DNA of 64,000 nt. Source: Patescibacteria group bacterium. GTDB lineage: Bacteria; Patescibacteriota; Minisyncoccia; Phycocordibacterales; Phycocordibacteraceae. The position numbers were made by a program, and so were the translations under genes. Below are positions 4,223 to 64,000 of the stretch, piece by piece (positions within the stretch are counted from its first letter, which is position 1; each line of letters opens with the position of its first letter). Under the pieces are notes generated by a model. The model did no database searches. It saw only the letters and a list, made by a program, of their open reading frames with translations, and was not told the DNA's origin. Where the stretch lies: assembly GCA_040384705.1 (NCBI GenBank), contig JAZKIU010000001.1, forward strand, positions 153,907 through 217,906, in the 5' to 3' direction.

Positions 4223-5614
4223 ATGCCGCTTCGCTTAACATTTCATGGAGGTGCAGGAACCGTCACAGGTTCTAATTTCTTGGTAGAGAGCCCGAAAGGG
4301 AAAGTACTCGTCGACTGCGGTATAGAGCAGGGGAGGGACTTCAGCGAGAAGCGGATGTACGAGCCGTTCCCGTACGATGTGTCGTCCATCGATGCGCTCG
4401 TCATCACGCATGCGCACCTCGATCACATCGGTAGGGCACCTAAATTGATGCGCGAAGGGTTCCGCGGCGACGTATACATGACGCTTGCGACACGCGATCT
4501 CACCGAGCTCATGCTCCGTGACAGCGTCGGGCTTCTGACTCGAGAGGCCGAGAGTCGCGGCTTGCAGCCGTTGTATAGGGAAGAGGATGTCGCGGCTTTC
4601 ATGGCGTGCGTGGAAGTGCTTCCGTACCGGATGGAGCGCGAGATAGCGCCCGGCATATCGGTCATGCTCCGGGACTCGGGTCATATCCTCGGGTCAGCAA
4701 GCGTACGGCTCATGGCGGACGACGGCACCACGCTCGCTATCACCGGCGACCTCGGGAATTCTCCCTCGCCGTACCTTCCGGACGCCGAGGGAATACCGGA
4801 TGCTAATGCACTTGTTATGGAAAGCGTGTATGGGGACCGGACGCATCCGCATCTGGCGGAGCGCGTACCGCAGCTGCGCGATACGCTCAATCGCGCCATT
4901 AAGCGCCGGGGAGCGATACTCATGCCCGCGTTCTCCATCGAGCGCACACAGCTCATGTTGTACGAGCTCTCGAACCTCATGGAGGCGGGGGAGGTGCCGC
5001 AGATACCGGTATTCCTAGACTCACCTCTCGCGATAGGGGTGACGGAAGTGTACGAGAAGCATGCGAAGGAGTATTTCAATACTGCAGCGAAGGAGGAATT
5101 GAAGCATGAGCAGAGCCTCTTCCGGTTCCCATTCCTCACCATGACCCGCTCGCGCGATGAGTCGAGGAACATCGATGCGGTGCAGGGCCCGAAGCTCATC
5201 ATCGCGGGAGCTGGAATGAGCCATGGGGGCCGTATCGGCAGGCATGAGGGGAAATACCTACCCGACCCATCCACGACGCTTCTCATCGTCGGATACCAGG
5301 CTCCTGGAAGCCCTGGAAGGCTGCTCCAGGATGGTTCAAAGTCGGTGCGCATCGACGGGAGGCCCGTCAGGGTGCGCGCGAAGGTGGAGACGCTCTCAGC
5401 ATGGTCGGCACACGCGGACCGCGATGGGCTGCTTGAGTTCGCGAAGAAGTCGCTGCCTCGTGCACATTCTATTTTCGTGGCAATTGGCGAGCCGTCCTCC
5501 GCACGCTTCCTCGCGCAGCGGGTCCATGATTATCTGGGTGCGAATGCCATCGTTCCCTCTATGGGCGACTCGTGGCTCATTGAGAAGGGAAGGAGTCATA
5601 AAGAGAAGGCCTAG
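4223..5614 (+). CDS. MBL-fold beta-CASP family ribonuclease (RNase J / CPSF-like RNA-metabolising metallo-beta-lactamase)
   Basis: HxHxDH motif (ITHAHLDHIG), beta-CASP and RMMBL-like C-terminus (SAHADRDGLLEF). Confidence 0.8.
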   Translation: MPLRLTFHGGAGTVTGSNFLVESPKGKVLVDCGIEQGRDFSEKRMYEPFPYDVSSIDALVITHAHLDHIGRAPKLMREGFRGDVYMTLATRDLTELMLRDSVGLLTREAESRGLQPLYREEDVAAFMACVEVLPYRMEREIAPGISVMLRDSGHILGSASVRLMADDGTTLAITGDLGNSPSPYLPDAEGIPDANALVMESVYGDRTHPHLAERVPQLRDTLNRAIKRRGAILMPAFSIERTQLMLYELSNLMEAGEVPQIPVFLDSPLAIGVTEVYEKHAKEYFNTAAKEELKHEQSLFRFPFLTMTRSRDESRNIDAVQGPKLIIAGAGMSHGGRIGRHEGKYLPDPSTTLLIVGYQAPGSPGRLLQDGSKSVRIDGRPVRVRAKVETLSAWSAHADRDGLLEFAKKSLPRAHSIFVAIGEPSSARFLAQRVHDYLGANAIVPSMGDSWLIEKGRSHKEKA

Positions 5615-5627
5615 TTCGGAGGATAGA

Positions 5628-5658
5628 GAAACAGCCCCAAGTGCGGGGCTGTTTCTCT
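5628..5658. terminator. Bidirectional terminator GAAACAGCCCC-loop-GGGGCTGTTTC
   Basis: Perfect 11-bp stem between convergent RNase (+) and rplT (-). Confidence 0.7.
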
Positions 5659-5671
5659 TCTTGAGAGGAGG

Positions 5672-6019
5672 TTAAGAAATCTTCTTAACAATCCTTGCGA
5701 ACGTCTCTGGCTGCGTCGCTGCGAGTTCCGAGAGGACCTTGCGGTCGAGCTCGATACCGGCCTTGGCCTTGGCTGCGATGAACGTGCTGTAGCTCTTGAA
5801 GCCCATATCACGGAGCACGGCGTTGAGGCGGACTATCCAAAGCTGGCGGTAGTCGGTCTTCTTGTCGCGGCGGTGGTTGAAGGCGTTCTTACCCGCGTGC
5901 ACGAGTGACTCCTTCGCGAGGCGGACCTTCGTGGAGCGGCCATGGCGATATCCCTTGGCGCGAACCAGTATGTTGCGTCGGCGCTTCGCTGATGTGACTC
6001 CTCCTTTTACTCGTGCCAT
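5672..6019 (-). CDS. rplT: 50S ribosomal protein L20
   Basis: MARVKGGVTSAKRRRNILVRAKGYRHGRS... canonical L20. Confidence 0.9.
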   Translation of the reverse strand: MARVKGGVTSAKRRRNILVRAKGYRHGRSTKVRLAKESLVHAGKNAFNHRRDKKTDYRQLWIVRLNAVLRDMGFKSYSTFIAAKAKAGIELDRKVLSELAATQPETFARIVKKIS

Positions 6020-6042
6020 AGAATGCTATTTAAAATGTAAGA

Positions 6043-6252
6043 CTAGGAAGCTTTCGGCTTCTTTCCCGCGTTACCGCCGAGGAAGCGGCGACGCACATCA
6101 TTGGTGACCGTAAGCTGCTGGACACGGCCCTTCTCGCCCTTGGTGCGTCCGCGCTCCTTGGCGTTGAAATGGTCCTGCCCGGCCTTACGCACAAGCAATT
6201 TCCCGGTGCGGGTCACCCTGATGCGCTTCGTAAATGACTTATTGGTTTTCAT
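6043..6252 (-). CDS. rpmI: 50S ribosomal protein L35
   Basis: Small basic protein MKTNKSFTKRIRVTRTGKLLVRKAGQDHFNAK; between infC and rplT. Confidence 0.85.
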   Translation of the reverse strand: MKTNKSFTKRIRVTRTGKLLVRKAGQDHFNAKERGRTKGEKGRVQQLTVTNDVRRRFLGGNAGKKPKAS

Positions 6253-56954: not shown

Positions 56955-57025
56955 TGCGGGATCGTCTAATGGTAGGACAGCGCTCTCTGGAGGCGTTTAT
57001 CTAGGTTCGAGTCCTAGTCCCGCAG
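56955..57025 (+). tRNA. tRNA-Gln (anticodon CTG); integration target of the downstream island
   Basis: Acceptor TGCGGGA/TCCCGCA with U1-A72 and G73 (Gln identity), D-arm GTC-TAATGGTAG-GAC, anticodon loop CTCTGGA, T-arm CTAGG-TTCGAGT-CCTAG. Confidence 0.65.
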
Positions 57026-58594
57026 CAAAGTAGGACTGAATGCGTATGTTTCTGCATTCTGTCCCGTATCCGTTGAGTTTTCTCGAGTTCGAACCATATC
57101 AAATTCTGCCTCAATCTGAATTGCATTGTCTGCAATCGCTTTGAACACAGGATGTAGATTTAGCACCACTTTTTGATTAGTGAGCACAAGGTTCGAACCG
57201 AGAGCAGAGAAGATAGCGCGGCGAGTGTTTCTGTCGCCGTTCTTGAACCACAGGTGCGCGTATCGAGCGAAGTTGAACGTTCGCTCTGAGAGCTCCACTT
57301 CCTCCTCAATCTTTTGACCAGTGCTTATCAAAGCCCTTTCAAAGCTCTGTTTTTGCTCCAAGAGAGGACTTTTGAGTTCCTGGTACTCCTCAGTTGAGAG
57401 CACCGAGCCATCTATGTTCTCTGGGGATGTGTAGCGAAGGTTGAGACTATTCAGCTGCGCAACGGTACGACTCAAGAGCTTCTGCTTGTTGTCGAGAGAT
57501 GTTTCCCGCGTTGCTGTCTGATTTTTGCGTACCTCGTGGAGATGCTTGATTGCCCACGTTTTGAATCGGTCATTTATCGTAAGCGTAGAGATAATGCCAT
57601 CAATTTGACGGCTTAGCTCATTGAGTTCAATTGAACGTTCTGTACATGATGGGTCTTTGCGCCATGTGCAGTGGTAATACACATAGTGTTTTGAAGTGCC
57701 GTTCTTGAAGCGCTTGGTCTTATTCTCAGCAGTAATCATTGCATCGCAGTTCCCGCAACGCATCAATCCGGTGAAATCAAATTGAGGCGTTTGTTTGGGA
57801 CGCTCTCTACCTTTACGTCCCAATAGTTCCTGAACGCGCCAGTACTCTTCCTCAGTAATCATTGGTTCATGTGTACCTGCCCACACACGACCAGCGTACT
57901 CATATGAGCCGTAATAGAAGGAGCTTCCGAATAGGGTATATATCGCACTACGTGCAATTGGCTTACCGCTAAGTGTTCGTAGACCCCATTCGTCGGTTGC
58001 TATACGTAATATTTCAGGCGGTGTGAAGTTGCCTGTAAGCATAAGATGCCAAGCACGCTTTACGAGCTCAAACCGCTCTGGGTCCGAGATAATCTTCTTT
58101 TCACTATTCTTATACCCGAGAGGCGCACGTCCTGGTCTAATGCCCATATCATTCTTTGTGCCAAGTCCGCGCTTCACATTTTTGCTAAGGTCTAGAACGT
58201 ACTGATTCGCTGCTCCAAACTGAAAGGCGGTCATAAGTACGTTATCGCCGGAGAAATGGTCTCCCTCGATAGTTTTTATGTGCGTCAGCGTGCCTGTTTG
58301 TAGAAGCCACTGAATGCTTCCGGCATCAATTGGGTTGCGAGCAAGTCGGTCCATCTTCCAGGACAAAATGCCTTGTGCTTCTCCAGCTCTAAGGCGCGTA
58401 ACCATATCATTGAAGACAGGACGTCCGGGGTCTTTTGCAGACTTGGATTCGCGGAAGGTCTCAACTATTTTGATACCCTCACGTTCAGCAAGCTCACGCA
58501 TTGCTTCTTCTTGAGAATCTAGACTCAAGACCTGACGTTTGACGTCTTCGGAGGATTTACGCACATATAGGAAATAGGAGTTAGAGGACGCCAT
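57014..58594 (-). CDS. Large serine recombinase (resolvase catalytic domain + recombinase domain + zinc ribbon)
   Basis: N-terminal YVRKSSEDVKRQVLSLDSQ (catalytic Ser), central recombinase domain, Cys cluster CGNCDAM...YYHCTWRKDPSC, coiled-coil tail. Confidence 0.85.
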   Translation of the reverse strand: MASSNSYFLYVRKSSEDVKRQVLSLDSQEEAMRELAEREGIKIVETFRESKSAKDPGRPVFNDMVTRLRAGEAQGILSWKMDRLARNPIDAGSIQWLLQTGTLTHIKTIEGDHFSGDNVLMTAFQFGAANQYVLDLSKNVKRGLGTKNDMGIRPGRAPLGYKNSEKKIISDPERFELVKRAWHLMLTGNFTPPEILRIATDEWGLRTLSGKPIARSAIYTLFGSSFYYGSYEYAGRVWAGTHEPMITEEEYWRVQELLGRKGRERPKQTPQFDFTGLMRCGNCDAMITAENKTKRFKNGTSKHYVYYHCTWRKDPSCTERSIELNELSRQIDGIISTLTINDRFKTWAIKHLHEVRKNQTATRETSLDNKQKLLSRTVAQLNSLNLRYTSPENIDGSVLSTEEYQELKSPLLEQKQSFERALISTGQKIEEEVELSERTFNFARYAHLWFKNGDRNTRRAIFSALGSNLVLTNQKVVLNLHPVFKAIADNAIQIEAEFDMVRTRENSTDTGQNAETYAFSPTLLRD

Positions 58595-58760
58595 TTTGTT
58601 TCATTCGACTGATAATTGGTTCGAATGTGAACAAGCCACTCATTAGGATGAGGGCAGCGATTCCAATCCATGCCTCAATACTTTCTGGAGGCTCTACAGA
58701 GACGAAGTGAATCGTCCAGGCGAACACGATAACAGCGATAATGTTTGGTATGTATTTCAT
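58581..58760 (-). CDS. Small membrane protein (59 aa; start at MKYIPNII)
   Basis: Two TM helices; overlaps recombinase start by 14 nt; weak. Confidence 0.3.
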   Translation of the reverse strand: MKYIPNIIAVIVFAWTIHFVSVEPPESIEAWIGIAALILMSGLFTFEPIISRMKQNGVL

Positions 58761-58939
58761 TTTTGGGTACAGAAAAAAGGGACGGCAGAGGAGCCTGCAC
58801 CCCACAAGAATGAAATTGCACGAGGCAACCATTTGTGGAGGACTCTGCCGCCCCTTTTGACCCGCAAATGGGTAAAAAAGACGAGAGCCTCGCGCAAACT
58901 TCGAACTTGTGGGGTGCCTATAAACCATAGCATTTTTGG

Positions 58940-59731
58940 TCATTTTTTCGAGGTTTTCTTCTTGATAATCCCCATGAGGTAGCCGCCCGGATTATCCAGG
59001 GGAGCGCCAGAGTTTTTGCGGCGCTGCAGCTCCTCATAGGCCTGCTCAATGACCCGTAGACCGTGGACGTTTAGTACAGCCAATAAAGGATTGATGTGGG
59101 GGTCTCCTACAGCGAGCGCTATTCGTCTCACAGCAGCCTCTTCGAGCGACTTCGGTTGGAAGGCCCCGGTAAACGTTCTTCCATTTGAAGAAACCGATAA
59201 CGTTTTTGTATCTCTTTCCGTATCCTTATCGTTATACGGACTTAGGAATGAGGTACTCGGCTCGGAAATCGAATAACCTTTTGCTATCTGGCTTTTCATC
59301 TCATCAAAGTTAGGAATCGCGGCACTCAACTTAGGACGAACTTCCTCTTCTTCGCTGAGCATTTTTTCCTCTACGGTCTCTAGCAGGGCAGGGGTCTTAG
59401 GATTGCAGTCAGGCACCTCACGGTAATTCTGCTTAGGTAAGAGCCAATATCCCATCCAAATTGGGAATGAACCTCGACGACCTTGGCGGTTTTCGAAATC
59501 AATCTGGCTCTTATCACGAAGCGAACGTAGGATTTTGTTTATGGTGTTCTCAGAGATAGTGAGGTCAAGGTCATCTCGAATATCTCCGAGGCTCGTGGTA
59601 GTGATACCCATTATGTCGGCATTACTACGCAACCAGATAAGTACGAGGTACTCAGTAGGGGTGAGCTTTCCATCCCTTCGCATCTGTGCGAGGAATCGCG
59701 GATTAGTCGTGTATGGATGAAGGCTATTCAT
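58940..59731 (-). CDS. Replication-initiator/organizer-like protein: N-terminal winged HTH, C-terminal DnaD-like region
   Basis: wHTH LTPTEYLVLIWLRSNADIMGITTTSLGDIRDDLDLTISENTINKILRSLRDK; C-terminal NPGGYLMGIIKKK reminiscent of DnaD YxxxIxxxW motif; start at MNSLHPY. Confidence 0.5.
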   Translation of the reverse strand: MNSLHPYTTNPRFLAQMRRDGKLTPTEYLVLIWLRSNADIMGITTTSLGDIRDDLDLTISENTINKILRSLRDKSQIDFENRQGRRGSFPIWMGYWLLPKQNYREVPDCNPKTPALLETVEEKMLSEEEEVRPKLSAAIPNFDEMKSQIAKGYSISEPSTSFLSPYNDKDTERDTKTLSVSSNGRTFTGAFQPKSLEEAAVRRIALAVGDPHINPLLAVLNVHGLRVIEQAYEELQRRKNSGAPLDNPGGYLMGIIKKKTSKK

Positions 59732-59888
59732 ATTCGTTGACCCATTCCTTCTTGAGCGGCTTATAAACCACATCGAAAAGCCCCAGCAGGGCAACTGCTA
59801 GTTCAAGCGCGAAGTCGTCAGGGAGTTCAATCCCTTCTTCCTCTGCATATATTCTTTTGAATTCCAGTAGGGCTTCTTGGGAGAGCAT
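59724..59888 (-). CDS. Small hypothetical protein (54 aa, MLSQEALLEFKRIYAEEEGIELPDDFALELAVALLGLFDVVYKPLKKEWVNEYE), translationally coupled to the Rep-like gene (TATGAATAG overlap)
   Basis: Found by manual translation (below 60-aa cutoff of ORF track); starts right at the palindromic control region; candidate regulator/RDF. Confidence 0.35.
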   Translation of the reverse strand: MLSQEALLEFKRIYAEEEGIELPDDFALELAVALLGLFDVVYKPLKKEWVNEYE

Positions 59889-59889
59889 G

Positions 59890-59960
59890 TAGACCCGCTC
59901 TCAGCTCTATAGGTACCTTTGCCGGGGACCTACAGAGCCCAAAGCGGGTCTCGGTATGTG
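59890..59960. promoter_or_regulatory. ~70-nt imperfect palindrome (AGACCCGCTCT...CTCTATAGGTACC-TTTGCCGGGG-ACCTACAGAG...AAGCGGGTCT) in the island divergent control region
   Basis: Nested inverted repeats immediately upstream of the minus-strand operon; candidate operator / ori / recombination site. Confidence 0.4.
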
Positions 59961-60334
59961 TGGCAAAGGTTTATCCCATAAGCAAAACCGCAGAAGAAAT
60001 TCTGCGGTTTGAGGCACAGAGCGGCCGCCTCAAAACCACAGCTAAGCTGAAAGATTTGGTGCGGCGGCTGGCGGGTACTCTGAGGGCGCTAATGGCTCCT
60101 GCTATGACTCCTATAGCCTATGCTCTCCGTGCGGGGTCTGCTGAGGACACCCAACGAATTAGATTCATTATAGAACTTCCCATAAGTCATGCAAGCAATC
60201 TGTTGATAAATTCCTCGCGAAGAGAAAGGGATACGCTATTTAGACTAGTCAGATGTATACAGGAGTAGACACTTGTATACTGACGGCTATAAGAAAGCGT
60301 TAGGAAGCCAGTCCGGGACTTAGAGAATAGACGG

Positions 60335-62302
60335 GTGTACAGTCTTTTTATAACCGAACGAATGGCCACATTTCGACACATCGCACCGAATATTGATAGC
60401 AGGACCATCTGCATTGTTGACTACGAAAACAGGGTGTTAGCGGCTGTAGTGTCTTCCTATTTCAATGCGCGAGGAGGATATCTTCCCTTATTTACATTTC
60501 CTAACGTTGCAGTGGGACATGATGAGGATAATGACTTCCAGGAGGACGGTTTCCTTTCGCGAATGGTTGGGGCTGAGTTCTCCGTACTAGTGAATAACGC
60601 ACTGGCACGCACGGGAAGAATCGAGCATGTCGTTTGCGTTGGTTTATCGGTGGAACAGAAAAGTTATCTTAGATTTCCCGCGCGCATACGCATTATTGAT
60701 ATTGATTCAATGGAGGAGGTTGAGAGTAATCTCTCGAAGATATCGCGCGTACCTTCGAAGGAGCTTAGGTGCAAGAGTGCCGACGCACTGTCGGGCTTAT
60801 ACCTTGCAAGAAGGACTGGGTGCAGGTTGGTGATAGACGAGTCAGTAGAGCCCATTGTTCTCCCCGTGGACCCAAATGCAGGGGTCATTGTCGTAGAGAA
60901 CTATGATAAAGCTTCGACCATTGTGGGAGTGAACTATGCTCTCGCGATTGGGGCGGACCTGGTCGTTGTAGACAGTCTGCCCGAGAGCGAGTTTAGGAGA
61001 ATCCCGAGATACTTTCTGAAATGGAAGCAACAGGGAGATGGCGCTAGCGAATCGGATTTGCGAGCGCTGGCAGATGGACGTATTGCCGGTATGCGGTTCA
61101 GTGGTCGTGAATATGCGACCTTCTTTACAGAAGGGTTGCCCTACGGCTATTTCATTGGAAATGAGATACCGTGCAGCCACGTGAGTCTCCGTCTCCGGCC
61201 GGACCTTTTCGTATTCAACGCAATAGTTTTTGAAAAGATGGCCCAGTTCCACTCAGGCGTGGTCTTCTCGCCAAAGTTCTTTCAGAAGGAAGAGACCGAA
61301 GCAATTGAATCGCTCCTCAAGGAGAGTAACTATCTCGTAAAGTCCCTGGTCGGCGAGGAAGCCACCGTCCACAACCTAGACTTCTATGCGCAGCATTATG
61401 CCTACGATATTTTCCATATCTGTACGCACGGCGGAGAGGTGCCGGGCATGAGAACAACTGAGGACTTTACAGACCGAATGGGTGTAAAACATACGGTGGT
61501 CAGCGATGTGGTCGCTGCCTTTGAGATTATTCCCGGCTCAGAGCTAATTGGTGTTCAAGAAAAGACCTTCACCCGTTTCTTTGATGGTATGGAATGGATG
61601 AGTAAGGACATGCAGGGTAAGCGGCTGCCAAGCTACATATTCGAGGACATGCGTAAGGCCTTCCACTACAGAGACGAGCCGAATCCGGAGGCAAAGCATA
61701 CTCCTATTGGCAACGTCGTTGATTCTTGCTGCATTGCGTGCGCGGGAAATCTATTTCATCAAGGCACGTTCAGGATACTTTCTTCCCATAACTCGCCGTA
61801 TATCTTCAATAACAGCTGCTGGTCTGCAGGCGAAGCCTCCCACTTCTTCTTATCCAGTGGTGCGAGGGGATATATTGGAACGCTTTGGGCAATCGGCGTT
61901 GCGGAAGCTGTAGATGGAGCAGAAGCCTTCTACTCAAATATCTTCAAGAAGCCTGTCCTGAACGCATTTGCTGACGCACTACTCGCCATAAGCAATACGT
62001 CAGATGCGAATATTTACATCTTCTGGGGCTTGCATTTCAGTACACTTACGACGGCATCCTCAGTAGCCGACAGCAGACACCGCGTCTTCAGAGAACTCAT
62101 TCGTGGTTACAGGGCTTGGAGCAGGAAGGCCGCGACCAGCCCTAATGCGGAGGTAAAGAAGAACTCTCTCGAAATAGCGAGGCTCATACGCCTACACACC
62201 ACAAAGGACTTCCGTCCCGAAGATGTAAGAAGGCTCACGAAGCCAACAATAAAGGAACAAGTATTAGAGATATTCAGCAAGCGGAGTTCGGAAACCCAGT
62301 AG
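60335..62302 (+). CDS. CHAT (caspase-like) domain protein with ~390-aa N-terminal domain of unknown function (island cargo)
   Basis: C-terminal half matches CHAT signature: YDIFHICTHGGEV (HxxTHG His), IFNNSCWSAGEA (Cys, cf. LVVLSACETG), FFLSSGARGYIGTLWAIGVAEA...AFYSNIF (cf. F..AGA..VVASLW.V.D...FY); GTG start. Confidence 0.55.
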   Translation: MYSLFITERMATFRHIAPNIDSRTICIVDYENRVLAAVVSSYFNARGGYLPLFTFPNVAVGHDEDNDFQEDGFLSRMVGAEFSVLVNNALARTGRIEHVVCVGLSVEQKSYLRFPARIRIIDIDSMEEVESNLSKISRVPSKELRCKSADALSGLYLARRTGCRLVIDESVEPIVLPVDPNAGVIVVENYDKASTIVGVNYALAIGADLVVVDSLPESEFRRIPRYFLKWKQQGDGASESDLRALADGRIAGMRFSGREYATFFTEGLPYGYFIGNEIPCSHVSLRLRPDLFVFNAIVFEKMAQFHSGVVFSPKFFQKEETEAIESLLKESNYLVKSLVGEEATVHNLDFYAQHYAYDIFHICTHGGEVPGMRTTEDFTDRMGVKHTVVSDVVAAFEIIPGSELIGVQEKTFTRFFDGMEWMSKDMQGKRLPSYIFEDMRKAFHYRDEPNPEAKHTPIGNVVDSCCIACAGNLFHQGTFRILSSHNSPYIFNNSCWSAGEASHFFLSSGARGYIGTLWAIGVAEAVDGAEAFYSNIFKKPVLNAFADALLAISNTSDANIYIFWGLHFSTLTTASSVADSRHRVFRELIRGYRAWSRKAATSPNAEVKKNSLEIARLIRLHTTKDFRPEDVRRLTKPTIKEQVLEIFSKRSSETQ

Positions 62303-62408
62303 AAACGCTCTAATAGAGGACATCCTCGAACGTCGTTTATTACTCCCAGTAGTTATACAAGCCCTTAGGTAAAGGCGTTTAGACAGAGGAGTATTAGGAC
62401 GTTAGAAC

Positions 62409-62864
62409 TTATCCGCCGATAGTATCGAGCTTCGTTTCCATCCATTCGATTTCTGCTTGCTGACCTTTCAAGATATTTCCGCAGAGCTCCTTTATCTGAG
62501 TATCTTCTAGATTAGCTTTCTCGCACATAAGAATAGCCCCAGCATGGTGAGGAATCATCGAGCGCAGGAACTGTTCATCGCCTATGGCTACTTGTTCACG
62601 AATAAGAAAGAAGGAGAGCGCAAGTACAAGGACGCCAATTGCGATAATACCGACATTGAACTTTTTGTTGGGATACATTGAGCCCATGATGAGGAGCTCC
62701 AGTACTACCATCGGCGCAGCCATAAGAGCTGCCATGTAGAACTGGTTATGGTTGGGAAGGGCATGCGCAAAGGTGTCCACCATTGCGTACATGAGTACGT
62801 ACATGGCTCCTAAATGCAGGATAAACATGAGCGCTAGTTTCCCGTAGTTTTTAGTGTGGTCCAT
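62409..62864 (-). CDS. DUF305 family protein (metal-homeostasis associated); start set at MDHTK to avoid overlapping the operator
   Basis: Conserved MIPHHAGAILMCE DUF305 motif, N-terminal TM helices; in-frame upstream ATGs at 62942/62909 would overlap the palindrome. Confidence 0.55.
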   Translation of the reverse strand: MDHTKNYGKLALMFILHLGAMYVLMYAMVDTFAHALPNHNQFYMAALMAAPMVVLELLIMGSMYPNKKFNVGIIAIGVLVLALSFFLIREQVAIGDEQFLRSMIPHHAGAILMCEKANLEDTQIKELCGNILKGQQAEIEWMETKLDTIGG

Positions 62865-62898
62865 AGCATTAGAGTAGTCCTTTATTGCCTCGTTGACA

Positions 62899-62919
62899 AT
62901 ATACCCCATGGGGGTATAT
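62899..62919. promoter_or_regulatory. CsoR-type operator candidate ATATACCCC-ATG-GGGGTATAT plus extra GGTATAT half-site
   Basis: GC-core inverted repeat resembling CsoR/RcnR-family operators, in the divergent promoter between DUF305 and csoR-like genes. Confidence 0.55.
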
Positions 62920-62926
62920 TGGGTAT

Positions 62927-63193
62927 ATGAAAGTCGAAACAACCAAACAGGTGCTCAACCGTTTGCGCCGCATTGAAGGTCAGGTGCGCGGGCTTCAAAA
63001 GATGGTCGAAGAAGGAACGTACTGTGTAGATGTCATCACGCAGACTTCCGCAGTGAAGAAGGCCCTTTCAGCCGTGGAAGACCAGCTCATGGAAGGTCAT
63101 CTTGGGTCCTGCGTTATCGGTCAGATGAAAAGGGGTCAACACGATAAAGCAACGAAGGAAATCCTGAAAGTTTATTCACTAAAGCGCACCTAG
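62927..63193 (+). CDS. csoR: CsoR/RcnR/FrmR family metal-sensing transcriptional repressor
   Basis: RLRRIEGQVRGLQKMVEEGTYCVDVITQTSAVKKAL...H..C pattern diagnostic of the CsoR fold. Confidence 0.75.
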   Translation: MKVETTKQVLNRLRRIEGQVRGLQKMVEEGTYCVDVITQTSAVKKALSAVEDQLMEGHLGSCVIGQMKRGQHDKATKEILKVYSLKRT

Positions 63194-63194
63194 T

Positions 63195-63656
63195 ATGAGC
63201 CACGGACACTCTCAAAGTCTCAATAAAGTAGCATTCAGTGCCACGCTCCATTGTCTTACCGGCTGTGCCACCGGTGAGGTGCTTGGCCTCGTTATAGGTA
63301 CAGCTCTCGGTTGGGGAGCAGGACAAACTATCGTGCTTGCGGTGGTACTCGCATTCTTCTTTGGATATCTCTTTACCATGGTCCCCTTGCTGCGTCATGG
63401 CATGACACTCGGCGCTGCCGTGGGTCTTGCATTCGCCTCTGATACCGCTTCAATCGCAATCATGGAAGTCGTAGACAACGCTGTAATGCTTCTTATCCCG
63501 GGGGCCATGACGGCAGGCCTCACTGCCCCCTTATTTTGGGTGAGCATGGTTATCGCTCTTGTAATTGCGGGAGCGTTCGCATTCCCGGTAAATCGCTGGC
63601 TTATTGCCAGAGGAAAGGGGCATGCGGTCGTGCACGCTCATCACGGGCATCATTAG
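63195..63656 (+). CDS. DUF4396-like membrane protein with HCLTGC metal-binding motif and His-rich C-terminus (HAVVHAHHGHH)
   Basis: 4 TM; CxxGC motif; poly-His tail; 2 nt after csoR stop. Confidence 0.55.
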   Translation: MSHGHSQSLNKVAFSATLHCLTGCATGEVLGLVIGTALGWGAGQTIVLAVVLAFFFGYLFTMVPLLRHGMTLGAAVGLAFASDTASIAIMEVVDNAVMLLIPGAMTAGLTAPLFWVSMVIALVIAGAFAFPVNRWLIARGKGHAVVHAHHGHH

Positions 63657-63674
63657 AAATCATATTCATTTACT

Positions 63675-63947
63675 ATGAACACACGTCTCTCACCAACAGC
63701 AACAGGGCTCGCGCTTTCAGGAACGCTAGTAATCGTTTTCGTGCTCTGTGCATTCGTGCAGGCAGTAGCTCCCGGCCTCCAGGCAAGTCACATGTGGGTG
63801 AATCTGTTTACGGCAGCGCCTATCGGCTCTGCTGAAGCTTGGTTCGAAGGGATTCTTTCAAGTCTCGTAGCAGGTTTCATCGCAGGATGGCTCTTCGGTG
63901 CTATTTACAACAAGAAAGCCGCGTGGCTCGAACGTCGCGGTAAGTAA
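63675..63947 (+). CDS. Small membrane protein (90 aa)
   Basis: Two TM helices; downstream of metal cassette. Confidence 0.35.
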   Translation: MNTRLSPTATGLALSGTLVIVFVLCAFVQAVAPGLQASHMWVNLFTAAPIGSAEAWFEGILSSLVAGFIAGWLFGAIYNKKAAWLERRGK

Positions 63948-64000
63948 TATCTCTACCCATGAATACCAATACACTAGTTATCGCACTCATCACCCTCGTC

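Follow-up and report, generated by a model that had tools for sequence, protein, structure and literature searches.

What does a caspase-like protein do when its gene stands alone on a mobile island of a reduced bacterial genome? This question is raised by a gene on the forward strand of contig JAZKIU010000001.1 (Patescibacteria group bacterium, assembly GCA_040384705.1), within a stretch of 64,000 nucleotides (contig positions 153,907 to 217,906) that we call the window and whose numbering is used throughout. A first-pass annotation had read the open reading frame (ORF) at 60335..62302 (+) as a CHAT-type protease with an uncharacterised N-terminal domain and had proposed it as a candidate single-gene defence system. 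Profile matches and a predicted structure indicate that the gene product is a cytoplasmic cysteine protease of clan CD, intact and belonging to the CHAT family. Profile, predicted fold and catalytic dyad place it in Pfam CHAT and clan CD, and it falls outside every characterised CHAT-based system. We put the probability of a conflict or defence role at roughly 0.4–0.5.

The gene encodes a CHAT-family protease

The three motifs on which the CHAT assignment was first based, YDIFHICTHGGEV, IFNNSCWSAGEA and FFLSSGARGYIGTLWAIGVAEA, are all present in the ORF exactly as quoted. The reading frame itself also stands; it opens with GTG and encodes 655 aa. However, the start codon is probably a different one. 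The exact-sequence NCBI protein (MES2994662.1, a 646-aa 'hypothetical protein' of a Patescibacteria group bacterium), P0002 (the relative with 88% identity) and 52 aligned homologues, judged by their N-termini, agree on the ATG at 60362. Because all of these begin at that ATG, the protein is most likely 646 aa long, and residues are numbered 1–646 here (the 655-aa numbering is higher by 9). Direct reading of the sequence revealed no signal peptide or membrane segment in the CHAT protein.

In Pfam-A, CHAT (PF12770) was the sole family matched at E≤1 (E 8e-8; 32.5 bits, against a gathering score of 24). The match falls in two stretches: profile positions 95–152 correspond to residues 296–357, ending in HICTHGG, and positions 215–281 to residues 493–555, from GARGYIGTLW through IFWGL. 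Deletion of the intervening insert in silico raised the score only to 36.1 bits, showing that the weak Pfam score stems from divergence and not from the insert alone. PF12770 is also the precomputed assignment for most homologues.

Structure prediction agrees with the profile. An AlphaFold2 (AF2) model built on a 52-sequence alignment was confident (predicted local distance difference test, pLDDT, 88.7; predicted template-modelling score, pTM, 0.90). Its predicted order is strands 298–303, 325–330 and 350–353, His356-Gly357, strand 480–483, Cys486, and then helix, strand, helix. This is the alpha/beta order of the caspase-haemoglobinase fold, with the His after beta3 and the Cys after beta4 of the model. 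The significant Foldseek matches of the model in the PDB were all clan-CD proteases (E 1.7e-5 to 1e-2), led by human separase (E 1.7e-5), gingipain R (2e-5) and the SAVED-CHAT filament 8tl0 (5e-5), followed by DdvA and the TPR-CHAT protein Csx29 of Craspase. Nothing significant came from searching PDB sequences with the protein alone, with a profile of its N-terminal part or with that of the full family. In a sub-threshold alignment of the family profile to 8tl0 (E 0.27), H356 and C486 pair with chain positions 355 and 402, which, once the 20-residue offset is added, correspond to H375 and C422, the catalytic residues published for SAVED-CHAT.

Residues around the putative active site are strictly conserved. 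H352, H356, G357, N483, N484, C486 and S488 are invariant in 121/121 distinct full-length members. The codon of the catalytic His356 lies at 61427–61429 and that of Cys486, within FNN[ST]C, at 61817–61819. E311, found in 120/121 members, is encoded at 61292–61294, just past beta1. In clan-CD enzymes such as caspases, metacaspases and gingipain, the P1-binding residue is located just after beta1. Since Glu311 occupies this position, a preference for a basic P1 residue is a reasonable guess. Profile, predicted fold and dyad together argue that the protein is very probably an active CHAT protease with His356-Gly357 and Cys486 as catalytic residues, placed as the first-pass annotation had them.

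Some copies of this gene have decayed: three are frameshifted, three survive as C-terminal-half remnants and one is split by an IS66 transposase. The split copy lies at L085 3442–4422 and 6992–7921, with the transposase at 4514–6175; the other decayed copies are in loci L087, L090 and L057, and L080, L086 and L092. The window gene could in principle be another dead remnant, a pseudo-protease or a mis-called ORF, but we find this hardly credible. The window copy is full length and under strong purifying selection, with a ratio of nonsynonymous to synonymous substitution rates (dN/dS) of 0.067 against its closest relative (88% identity, island L094). Its catalytic and motif residues are intact and invariant, and its fold is predicted with confidence.

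Three family-specific regions are added to the protease core

To the CHAT core the family adds an N-terminal double alpha/beta module, a beta-rich insert separating the two catalytic residues and, at the C-terminus, a variable helical region. The His-Cys spacing is indeed unusually long, as had been noticed: H356 and C486 are 130 residues apart, compared to 47 in SAVED-CHAT and about 58 profile positions in Pfam CHAT. This spacing is due to the conserved insert, which measures about 83–110 aa and amounts to an 83-residue expansion between the catalytic residues relative to SAVED-CHAT. AF2 predicts strands 357–370, 376–389, 396–407 and 445–460, forming long beta-hairpins, and two short helices. 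With a mean column identity of 0.51 the insert is conserved like the rest of the protein, and its His377 is invariant (121/121). Even at E≤10, Pfam gave no match for segment 357–470 and none for residues 1–296.

The N-terminal domain was originally put at 390 aa. While its lack of any recognisable relative stands, its size does not; the CHAT match and beta1 start at about residue 296–298, so the module comprises about 296 aa. It was unmatched in Pfam (E≤10) in 17/17 diverse members. Two alpha/beta lobes (~10–160 and 175–296) are predicted both in the full model and in a model of the module alone (pLDDT 89.3). Foldseek against the PDB returned weak, generic two-lobe matches to glutamate racemase and Cwp6 (template-modelling score, TM, 0.25–0.32; root-mean-square deviation 8–14 Å). 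The module carries an invariant TFFTxGxPY motif (T253 to Y261; 61118–61144) and the conserved residues Asn79 (117/121), Glu179 (118/121), Asn191 (110/121) and Tyr192 (115/121). Such conservation suggests that the module holds a defined site and does more than serve as a scaffold.

When 1.84 billion cluster representatives were searched with a profile of the module, 458 proteins matched, and the best 150 of the 458 are all ≤680 aa long; a word-indexed search with the module recovered short fragments only. Among the matches listed, the module thus appears to be specific to this CHAT family. Because alignments of the full model to separase and gingipain run over 435–467 columns, at least the second lobe may be packed on the catalytic domain in the manner of the accessory subdomains of these proteases. 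The three long helices predicted at the C-terminus are the least conserved part of the protein, with a mean column identity of 0.30.

The gene is rare, scattered and solitary

We collected 88 full-length homologues (31–88% identity), annotated in databases as 'CHAT domain-containing protein' or 'hypothetical protein'. Relatives turned up, when one genome per species was scanned, in 95/185,579 species (~0.05%), patchily distributed over at least 6 phyla, and 80 species-level loci were retained. Counted from record titles, these are ~52 Bacteroidota, 15 Acidobacteriota, 7 Patescibacteria and a few Eremiobacterota, Verrucomicrobia and Proteobacteria. The Patescibacteria carriers belong to Saccharibacteria, Parcubacteria and Peregrinibacteria, and cultured carriers include Flavobacterium reichenbachii DSM 21791, Hymenobacter artigasi and Mucilaginibacter sp. 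E4BP6. The F. reichenbachii member of the family is WP_035684550.1. No relative was found by tblastn in 72,556 plasmids or 50,697 phage genomes, nor among the BFVD viral structure models.

ORF clustering of the 80 loci revealed no conserved neighbour; the commonest cluster occurs in 6 loci, all from related Flavobacteriaceae. Likewise, no conserved small ORF was found near the CHAT gene. The gene is genuinely solitary, in keeping with its first description as standalone. Same-strand genes within 130 bp are a mixture: coupling proteins of type IV secretion systems (T4SS) in 5 loci, resolvases in 3, Mrr endonucleases in 2 and nSTAND NTPases in 2, besides Vsr, an IS200 transposase, a UvrD-like helicase and OLD-type AAA_21/TOPRIM ATPases. 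Two further loci have an nSTAND NTPase on the opposite strand.

Some of these neighbours raise the alternative that the protein is the effector half of a two-gene system with a variable sensor (an OLD-like ATPase, an Mrr-like nuclease or a STAND NTPase), whose partner has been lost or replaced in the window. Two Saccharibacteria island lineages have an AAA_15/AAA_21 ATPase gene 7–16 bp upstream, locus L001 has an Mrr_cat/NA-iREase gene 46 bp upstream, and nSTAND NTPases are adjacent in four loci in all. However, each pairing is limited to a few related loci, and most loci, including the window and its 88% relative, have no such neighbour. In the window, the 470 nt between the backbone genes of the island and the CHAT gene are a non-coding part of that backbone. 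Furthermore, OLD, Mrr and STAND proteins are themselves defence systems or effectors. On balance we judge the two-gene arrangement to be improbable.

The upstream ATPase genes lie on the same strand as the CHAT gene (L003 6209–7984, L007 4407–5993 and also L014 5380–6966), and one of the two lineages adds an OLD-like TOPRIM domain. This ATPase-CHAT pair could be a two-gene variant or simply two neighbouring defence genes. In a Peregrinibacteria locus (L091 1812–3428, minus strand) the CHAT gene adjoins a gene for a TPR protein with HEPN_LA2681, a predicted RNase of toxin/defence type. In two acidobacterial loci, ~0.9–1 kb upstream of the CHAT gene contains no called gene or convincing ORF (L010 5138–6000; L011 4968–6000); this stretch may be a leader, a repeat or the remains of a gene.

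The gene is cargo of tRNA-targeting islands

The surroundings of the gene bear out its description as mobile-element cargo in a reduced genome, here a Patescibacteria metagenome-assembled genome. At about 56–57 kb the G+C content falls from ~0.59 to 0.49, and at this border the 3' end of a large serine recombinase gene overlaps tRNA-Gln by 13 nt. The recombinase gene has counterparts in L094, L003, L007 and L008. Patescibacteria copies of the CHAT gene are repeatedly found on such serine-recombinase islands, with the recombinase overlapping tRNA-Gln, -Asn or -Ala.

The neighbourhood was checked in a related element, island L094, which carries the same CHAT cassette (protein 88% identical) at tRNA-Gln(TTG) in the same arrangement, with different cargo beside it: genes for a MutH-like endonuclease, a Dcm methylase and Vsr lie between backbone and CHAT gene. 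DNA homology between window and L094 is confined to three blocks, the recombinase (67%), a non-coding element (81% overall) and the CHAT cassette (83%). The cassette is tight, spanning window 60310–62325, and it shifts relative to the island backbone. The protease gene thus behaves as a compact module of cargo. Across the family, the cassette travels on integrative islands, conjugative elements and variable hot spots, and we consider it highly likely that the gene is a mobile, solitary accessory gene.

This mobility invites the explanation that the protease serves the element that carries it, through addiction or post-segregational killing, as a weapon against rival elements or by processing island or conjugation proteins. 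Carriage on serine-recombinase islands at Patescibacteria tRNA genes is as expected for such a role, as is the shifting position of the cassette. In five Flavobacteriaceae loci the CHAT gene lies directly beside the T4SS coupling proteins TraG/TraD. The gene is also solitary, with no recognisable antitoxin or immunity partner. However, the family lacks a conserved partner to serve as substrate or antitoxin or to be processed, many copies are found away from recognisable mobile elements, and the plasmid and phage genomes searched contain no match. Service to the mobile element therefore seems rather unlikely.

Comparison with characterised systems

In outline of working, the protein would most resemble SAVED-CHAT or the caspase-like protease of type IV Thoeris; in its multi-lobed build, it would most resemble separase and gingipain. 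SAVED-CHAT (PDB 8tl0; bioRxiv 10.1101/2023.06.23.546230) is likewise a single polypeptide with an N-terminal domain, regulatory in SAVED-CHAT, followed by the protease. It matches the model at Foldseek E 5e-5, and its His-Gly and Cys dyad (H375/C422) aligns with that of the protein here. SAVED-CHAT is found in loci of type III-B CRISPR (clustered regularly interspaced short palindromic repeats) and of the cyclic-oligonucleotide-based antiphage signalling system (CBASS), and provides a model of a protease held off until a trigger arrives; filament formation driven by cyclic tri-adenylate (cA3) activates it (bioRxiv 10.1101/2023.06.23.546230). In contrast, the family described here has no SAVED domain, either as a Pfam match (17 members) or as a fold match. 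Cas10, a CD-NTase/cyclase and a PCaspase substrate, which make up the SAVED-CHAT context, are absent from the window and from the most frequent neighbour families of the 80 loci.

The TPR-CHAT protein Csx29 of the type III-E Craspase (PDB 8d9f, 7y84, 8eey) shares the fold (Foldseek E 5e-3 to 1e-2) and is a protease associated with defence and controlled by its N-terminal domain. However, Csx29 has TPR and acts with Cas7-11/gRAMP and Csx30/31; the family here gave no TPR match, and neither these partners nor a CRISPR array was present in the window or the related loci examined. The closest model for the possible working of the protein is the type IV Thoeris protease (bioRxiv 10.1101/2024.10.24.620036). 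Once activated, this clan-CD enzyme cuts many proteins, including EF-Tu, after Arg and aborts infection, and it requires a TIR partner that makes N7-cyclic ADP-ribose (N7-cADPR) (bioRxiv 10.1101/2024.10.24.620036). The likeness proposed here is one of possible working, and the island in the window has no TIR gene, nor do the 80 loci have a conserved partner. Gasdermin-protease systems have an adjacent gasdermin gene, whereas the window neighbours are recombinase, helix-turn-helix (HTH) protein and metal-homeostasis genes, and no neighbour cluster recurs.

The best structural matches, separase (MEROPS C50; PDB 9hm7, 5fc2) and gingipain R (C25; PDB 1cvr, 4ief), at E 1.7e-5 to 3e-5, have alpha/beta or pseudo-protease subdomains preceding the active caspase-like domain in one chain, as is predicted here. 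The resemblance is structural only, with TM of just 0.23–0.31 on the query and no Peptidase_C50 or C25 profile match. Furthermore, separase is eukaryotic and regulated by securin, while gingipain is secreted with a pro-domain and the protein here lacks a signal peptide. DdvA (PDB 8rw5; PMC11506125) has a CHAT fold (Foldseek E 2e-3) and shows that bacteria can use a protease domain as a switch, in its case in the setting of a defence island. It is a transmembrane anti-sigma factor paired with an extracytoplasmic function (ECF) sigma factor, unlike the family here, which is predicted to be soluble and has no sigma-factor partner.

That separase and DdvA are among the best matches would also suit a specific regulatory protease of normal physiology, comparable to separase, HetF or DdvA, with one defined substrate encoded elsewhere. 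The strong conservation of N-terminal module and insert, with their invariant motifs, is what a fixed substrate or regulator would give, and several loci lie within housekeeping genes. Against this, the gene is scattered over phyla in ~0.05% of species, has repeatedly decayed or been disrupted by an insertion sequence, and rides on mobile islands with differing cargo. Rarity, decay and mobile carriage are atypical of a core regulatory function, and we regard such a role as quite unlikely.

A possible role in conflict or defence

We favour the reading that the protein is a self-contained conflict protein acting in defence or abortive infection, at a probability of about 0.45. This reading draws on analogy: it is proposed because caspase-like bacterial proteases act as executioners in type IV Thoeris and in type III CRISPR cascades. 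The genomic context also speaks for it: genes of conflict type often adjoin the CHAT gene (Mrr, OLD/GajA-like ATPases, nSTAND NTPases, Vsr/Dcm/MutH, Schlafen AlbA_2, AbiEi, TPR-HEPN and ResIII), and several copies have decayed or carry an IS66 interruption. In the scheme we envisage, one polypeptide would combine sensor and executioner. The N-terminal module and/or the insert would hold the protease inactive until a trigger from phage or mobile-element invasion lifts the inhibition; oligomerisation, on which SAVED-CHAT relies, may be the means. Either a protein or a ligand could be that trigger, and a ligand would bind at the invariant TFFTxGxPY/Asn79/Glu179/Asn191 surface. Once active, the protease would cleave host and/or invader proteins and stop growth, with abortive infection or addiction to the island as the outcome. 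It might cleave after a basic residue if Glu311 lines the S1 pocket. As no partner makes a signal, sensing would have to lie in the polypeptide itself (N-terminal module, insert or C-terminal helices), and as there is no partner gene to be cut, the substrates would be host or invader proteins encoded elsewhere.

This activation scheme, taken in its specifics, is unlikely to be exact. A narrower form of the defence reading is that of a new one-protein immune caspase, in which the double-Rossmann domain senses an infection ligand or protein directly and switches on the fused CHAT protease, possibly via the insert. It would require no separate signalling enzyme or substrate gene, a feature we hold as tentatively as the idea itself, which is possible but doubtful. 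More broadly, the gene is a reasonable candidate for a one-gene anti-phage or addiction function.

Several observations weigh against a defence role and led us to step back from the single-gene defence system of the first-pass annotation. PADLOC-DB v2.0.0 matched the CHAT protein and its two upstream ORFs to 0 families at E≤1, NCBIfam models did not match the CHAT protein, and a literature search found no paper describing this family. The neighbourhoods are heterogeneous, and many loci lie among housekeeping and metabolic genes (GcpE, glycoside hydrolases, M14/M13 peptidases, oxidoreductases). Defence-type genes do occur nearby, with 3 OLD/GajA/AriA-like ATPases, 2 Schlafen AlbA_2 proteins, AbiEi and a Dcm methylase among the 137 non-redundant genes within three positions (first 36 loci), but these are raw counts, and numerous metabolic genes stand among the same 137. 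CHAT proteases have roles other than defence, as DdvA and separase among the structural matches illustrate.

The notion of a 'sensor' N-terminus also loses ground. The module is conserved (mean column identity 46–50%) and not diversifying or fast-evolving, and none of the best 150 of the 458 matches has it fused to another effector. A conserved module of this kind would fit an integral regulatory or enzymatic domain as well as a sensor.

Other features of the island

Feature coordinates are given in Table 1. An independent 8.1-kb Logan assembly of the same sequence (L095) begins within tRNA-Gln and ends past a glyoxalase-like gene, so the island, which the large serine recombinase inserted at tRNA-Gln, is at least 8 kb long. 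No att direct repeats marking the right end were found within the window or L095. The 263-aa backbone gene has a weak HTH match, and its L094 counterpart carries HTH_36.

Table 1. Features of the CHAT gene and its island (window coordinates; residues of the 646-aa protein)
Feature	Coordinates	Strand	Basis and remarks
tRNA-Gln(CTG), integration site, left border	56955..57026	+	ARAGORN
Large serine recombinase, 526 aa	57014..58594	-	Pfam Resolvase, Recombinase, Zn_ribbon_recom
Backbone operon, 115 aa + 263 aa + 54 aa	58581..59888	-	Gene calls on L095: 115 aa, 58581-58928; 263 aa, 58940-59731; 54 aa, 59724-59888
Conserved non-coding element	59889..60300	.	Comparison with L094
Predicted CHAT-family protease gene	60362..62302	+	646 aa plus stop; upstream GTG 60335 alternative gives 655 aa
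N-terminal module, residues 1-296, two predicted Rossmann-like lobes	60362..61249	+	AF2, no Pfam match, alignment
Protease core, first half, residues 297-356, beta1-alpha-beta2-alpha-beta3	61250..61429	+	Pfam, AF2, alignment
Family-specific beta-rich insert, residues 357-466	61430..61759	+	AF2, no Pfam match, alignment
Protease core, second half, residues 467-560, beta4, FNN[ST]C, GARGYIGTLW	61760..62041	+	Pfam, alignment
C-terminal helical region, residues 568-640, three long predicted helices	62042..62299	+	AF2, alignment

The non-coding element upstream of the CHAT gene belongs to the island backbone and not to the CHAT cassette. Over ~290 nt it is ~93–95% identical to L094 (L094:6430–6831), with frame-breaking indels, whereas the coding blocks reach only 67–83%. 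It contains a 25-bp imperfect inverted repeat (59893–59949), which immediately precedes the 54-aa backbone gene, and, near 59990–60012, the perfect hairpin CCGCAGAAgaaaTTCTGCGG; the RNA fold of the element is better than that of shuffled controls (z = -3.78). The element was found in no Rfam family, in none of the other 93 loci and in neither of two exact-word metagenome scans. Its most probable role is that of an operator, a 5' leader or a small RNA.

Two candidate partners of the CHAT gene in this region were rejected. A 102-aa ORF at 59960–60268 (+) has no family in Pfam, PADLOC or NCBIfam, and in L094 the same DNA, though ~95% conserved, is split into 72-aa and 57-aa frames; since the element is conserved despite such indels, the ORF is probably spurious. 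A type III toxin-antitoxin-like RNA upstream of the CHAT gene was dismissed because a 3.1-kb restriction-modification module intervenes in L094 and there are no tandem repeats. A promoter and terminator scan near the CHAT gene was uninformative.

Downstream, the island carries further cargo (window 62409–64000 and L095 5411–8039): DUF305, a CsoR-type metal-sensing repressor, DUF4396 and DUF5676. L095 continues with a DUF305/DUF4142 gene and then the glyoxalase/bleomycin-resistance-like gene. Together these genes form a metal-homeostasis cargo set. In several Patescibacteria islands the 3' end of the recombinase gene overlaps the 3' end of a tRNA gene, for Gln(CTG), Gln(TTG), Asn or Ala (tRNA and recombinase at L094 3253–3324 and 3312–4892, L003 2435–2507 and 2468–4045, L007 624–697 and 635–2245). 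Such islands look like one family of small, tRNA-targeting, serine-recombinase elements whose cargo can be exchanged and includes genes for restriction-modification, an OLD-like ATPase, CHAT and metal resistance.

Significance

Caspase-like proteases are emerging as executioners of bacterial immunity, as in Craspase, the SAVED-CHAT/PCaspase cascade, type IV Thoeris and the gasdermin systems. To our knowledge, every characterised case relies on a partner, which either senses infection or is the substrate. The kind of protease described here, CHAT, is already known; what is new is the N-terminal module, the expansion by 83 residues between catalytic His and Cys, and the organisation without a partner. 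If the protein has no part in defence, it is an ordinary uncharacterised CHAT protein, of which databases hold many. If it does, it would be the simplest system of this sort, invariably solitary with dyad, N-terminal module and insert intact, and it would define a new regulatory domain for clan-CD proteases. Because cultured carriers exist, the idea can be tested directly. For the Patescibacteria, a defence role would add to a very short list of defence functions (bioRxiv 10.1101/2025.02.28.640651), and the spread of the gene on small tRNA-targeting serine-recombinase islands would give these minimal genomes a capacity for abortive infection.

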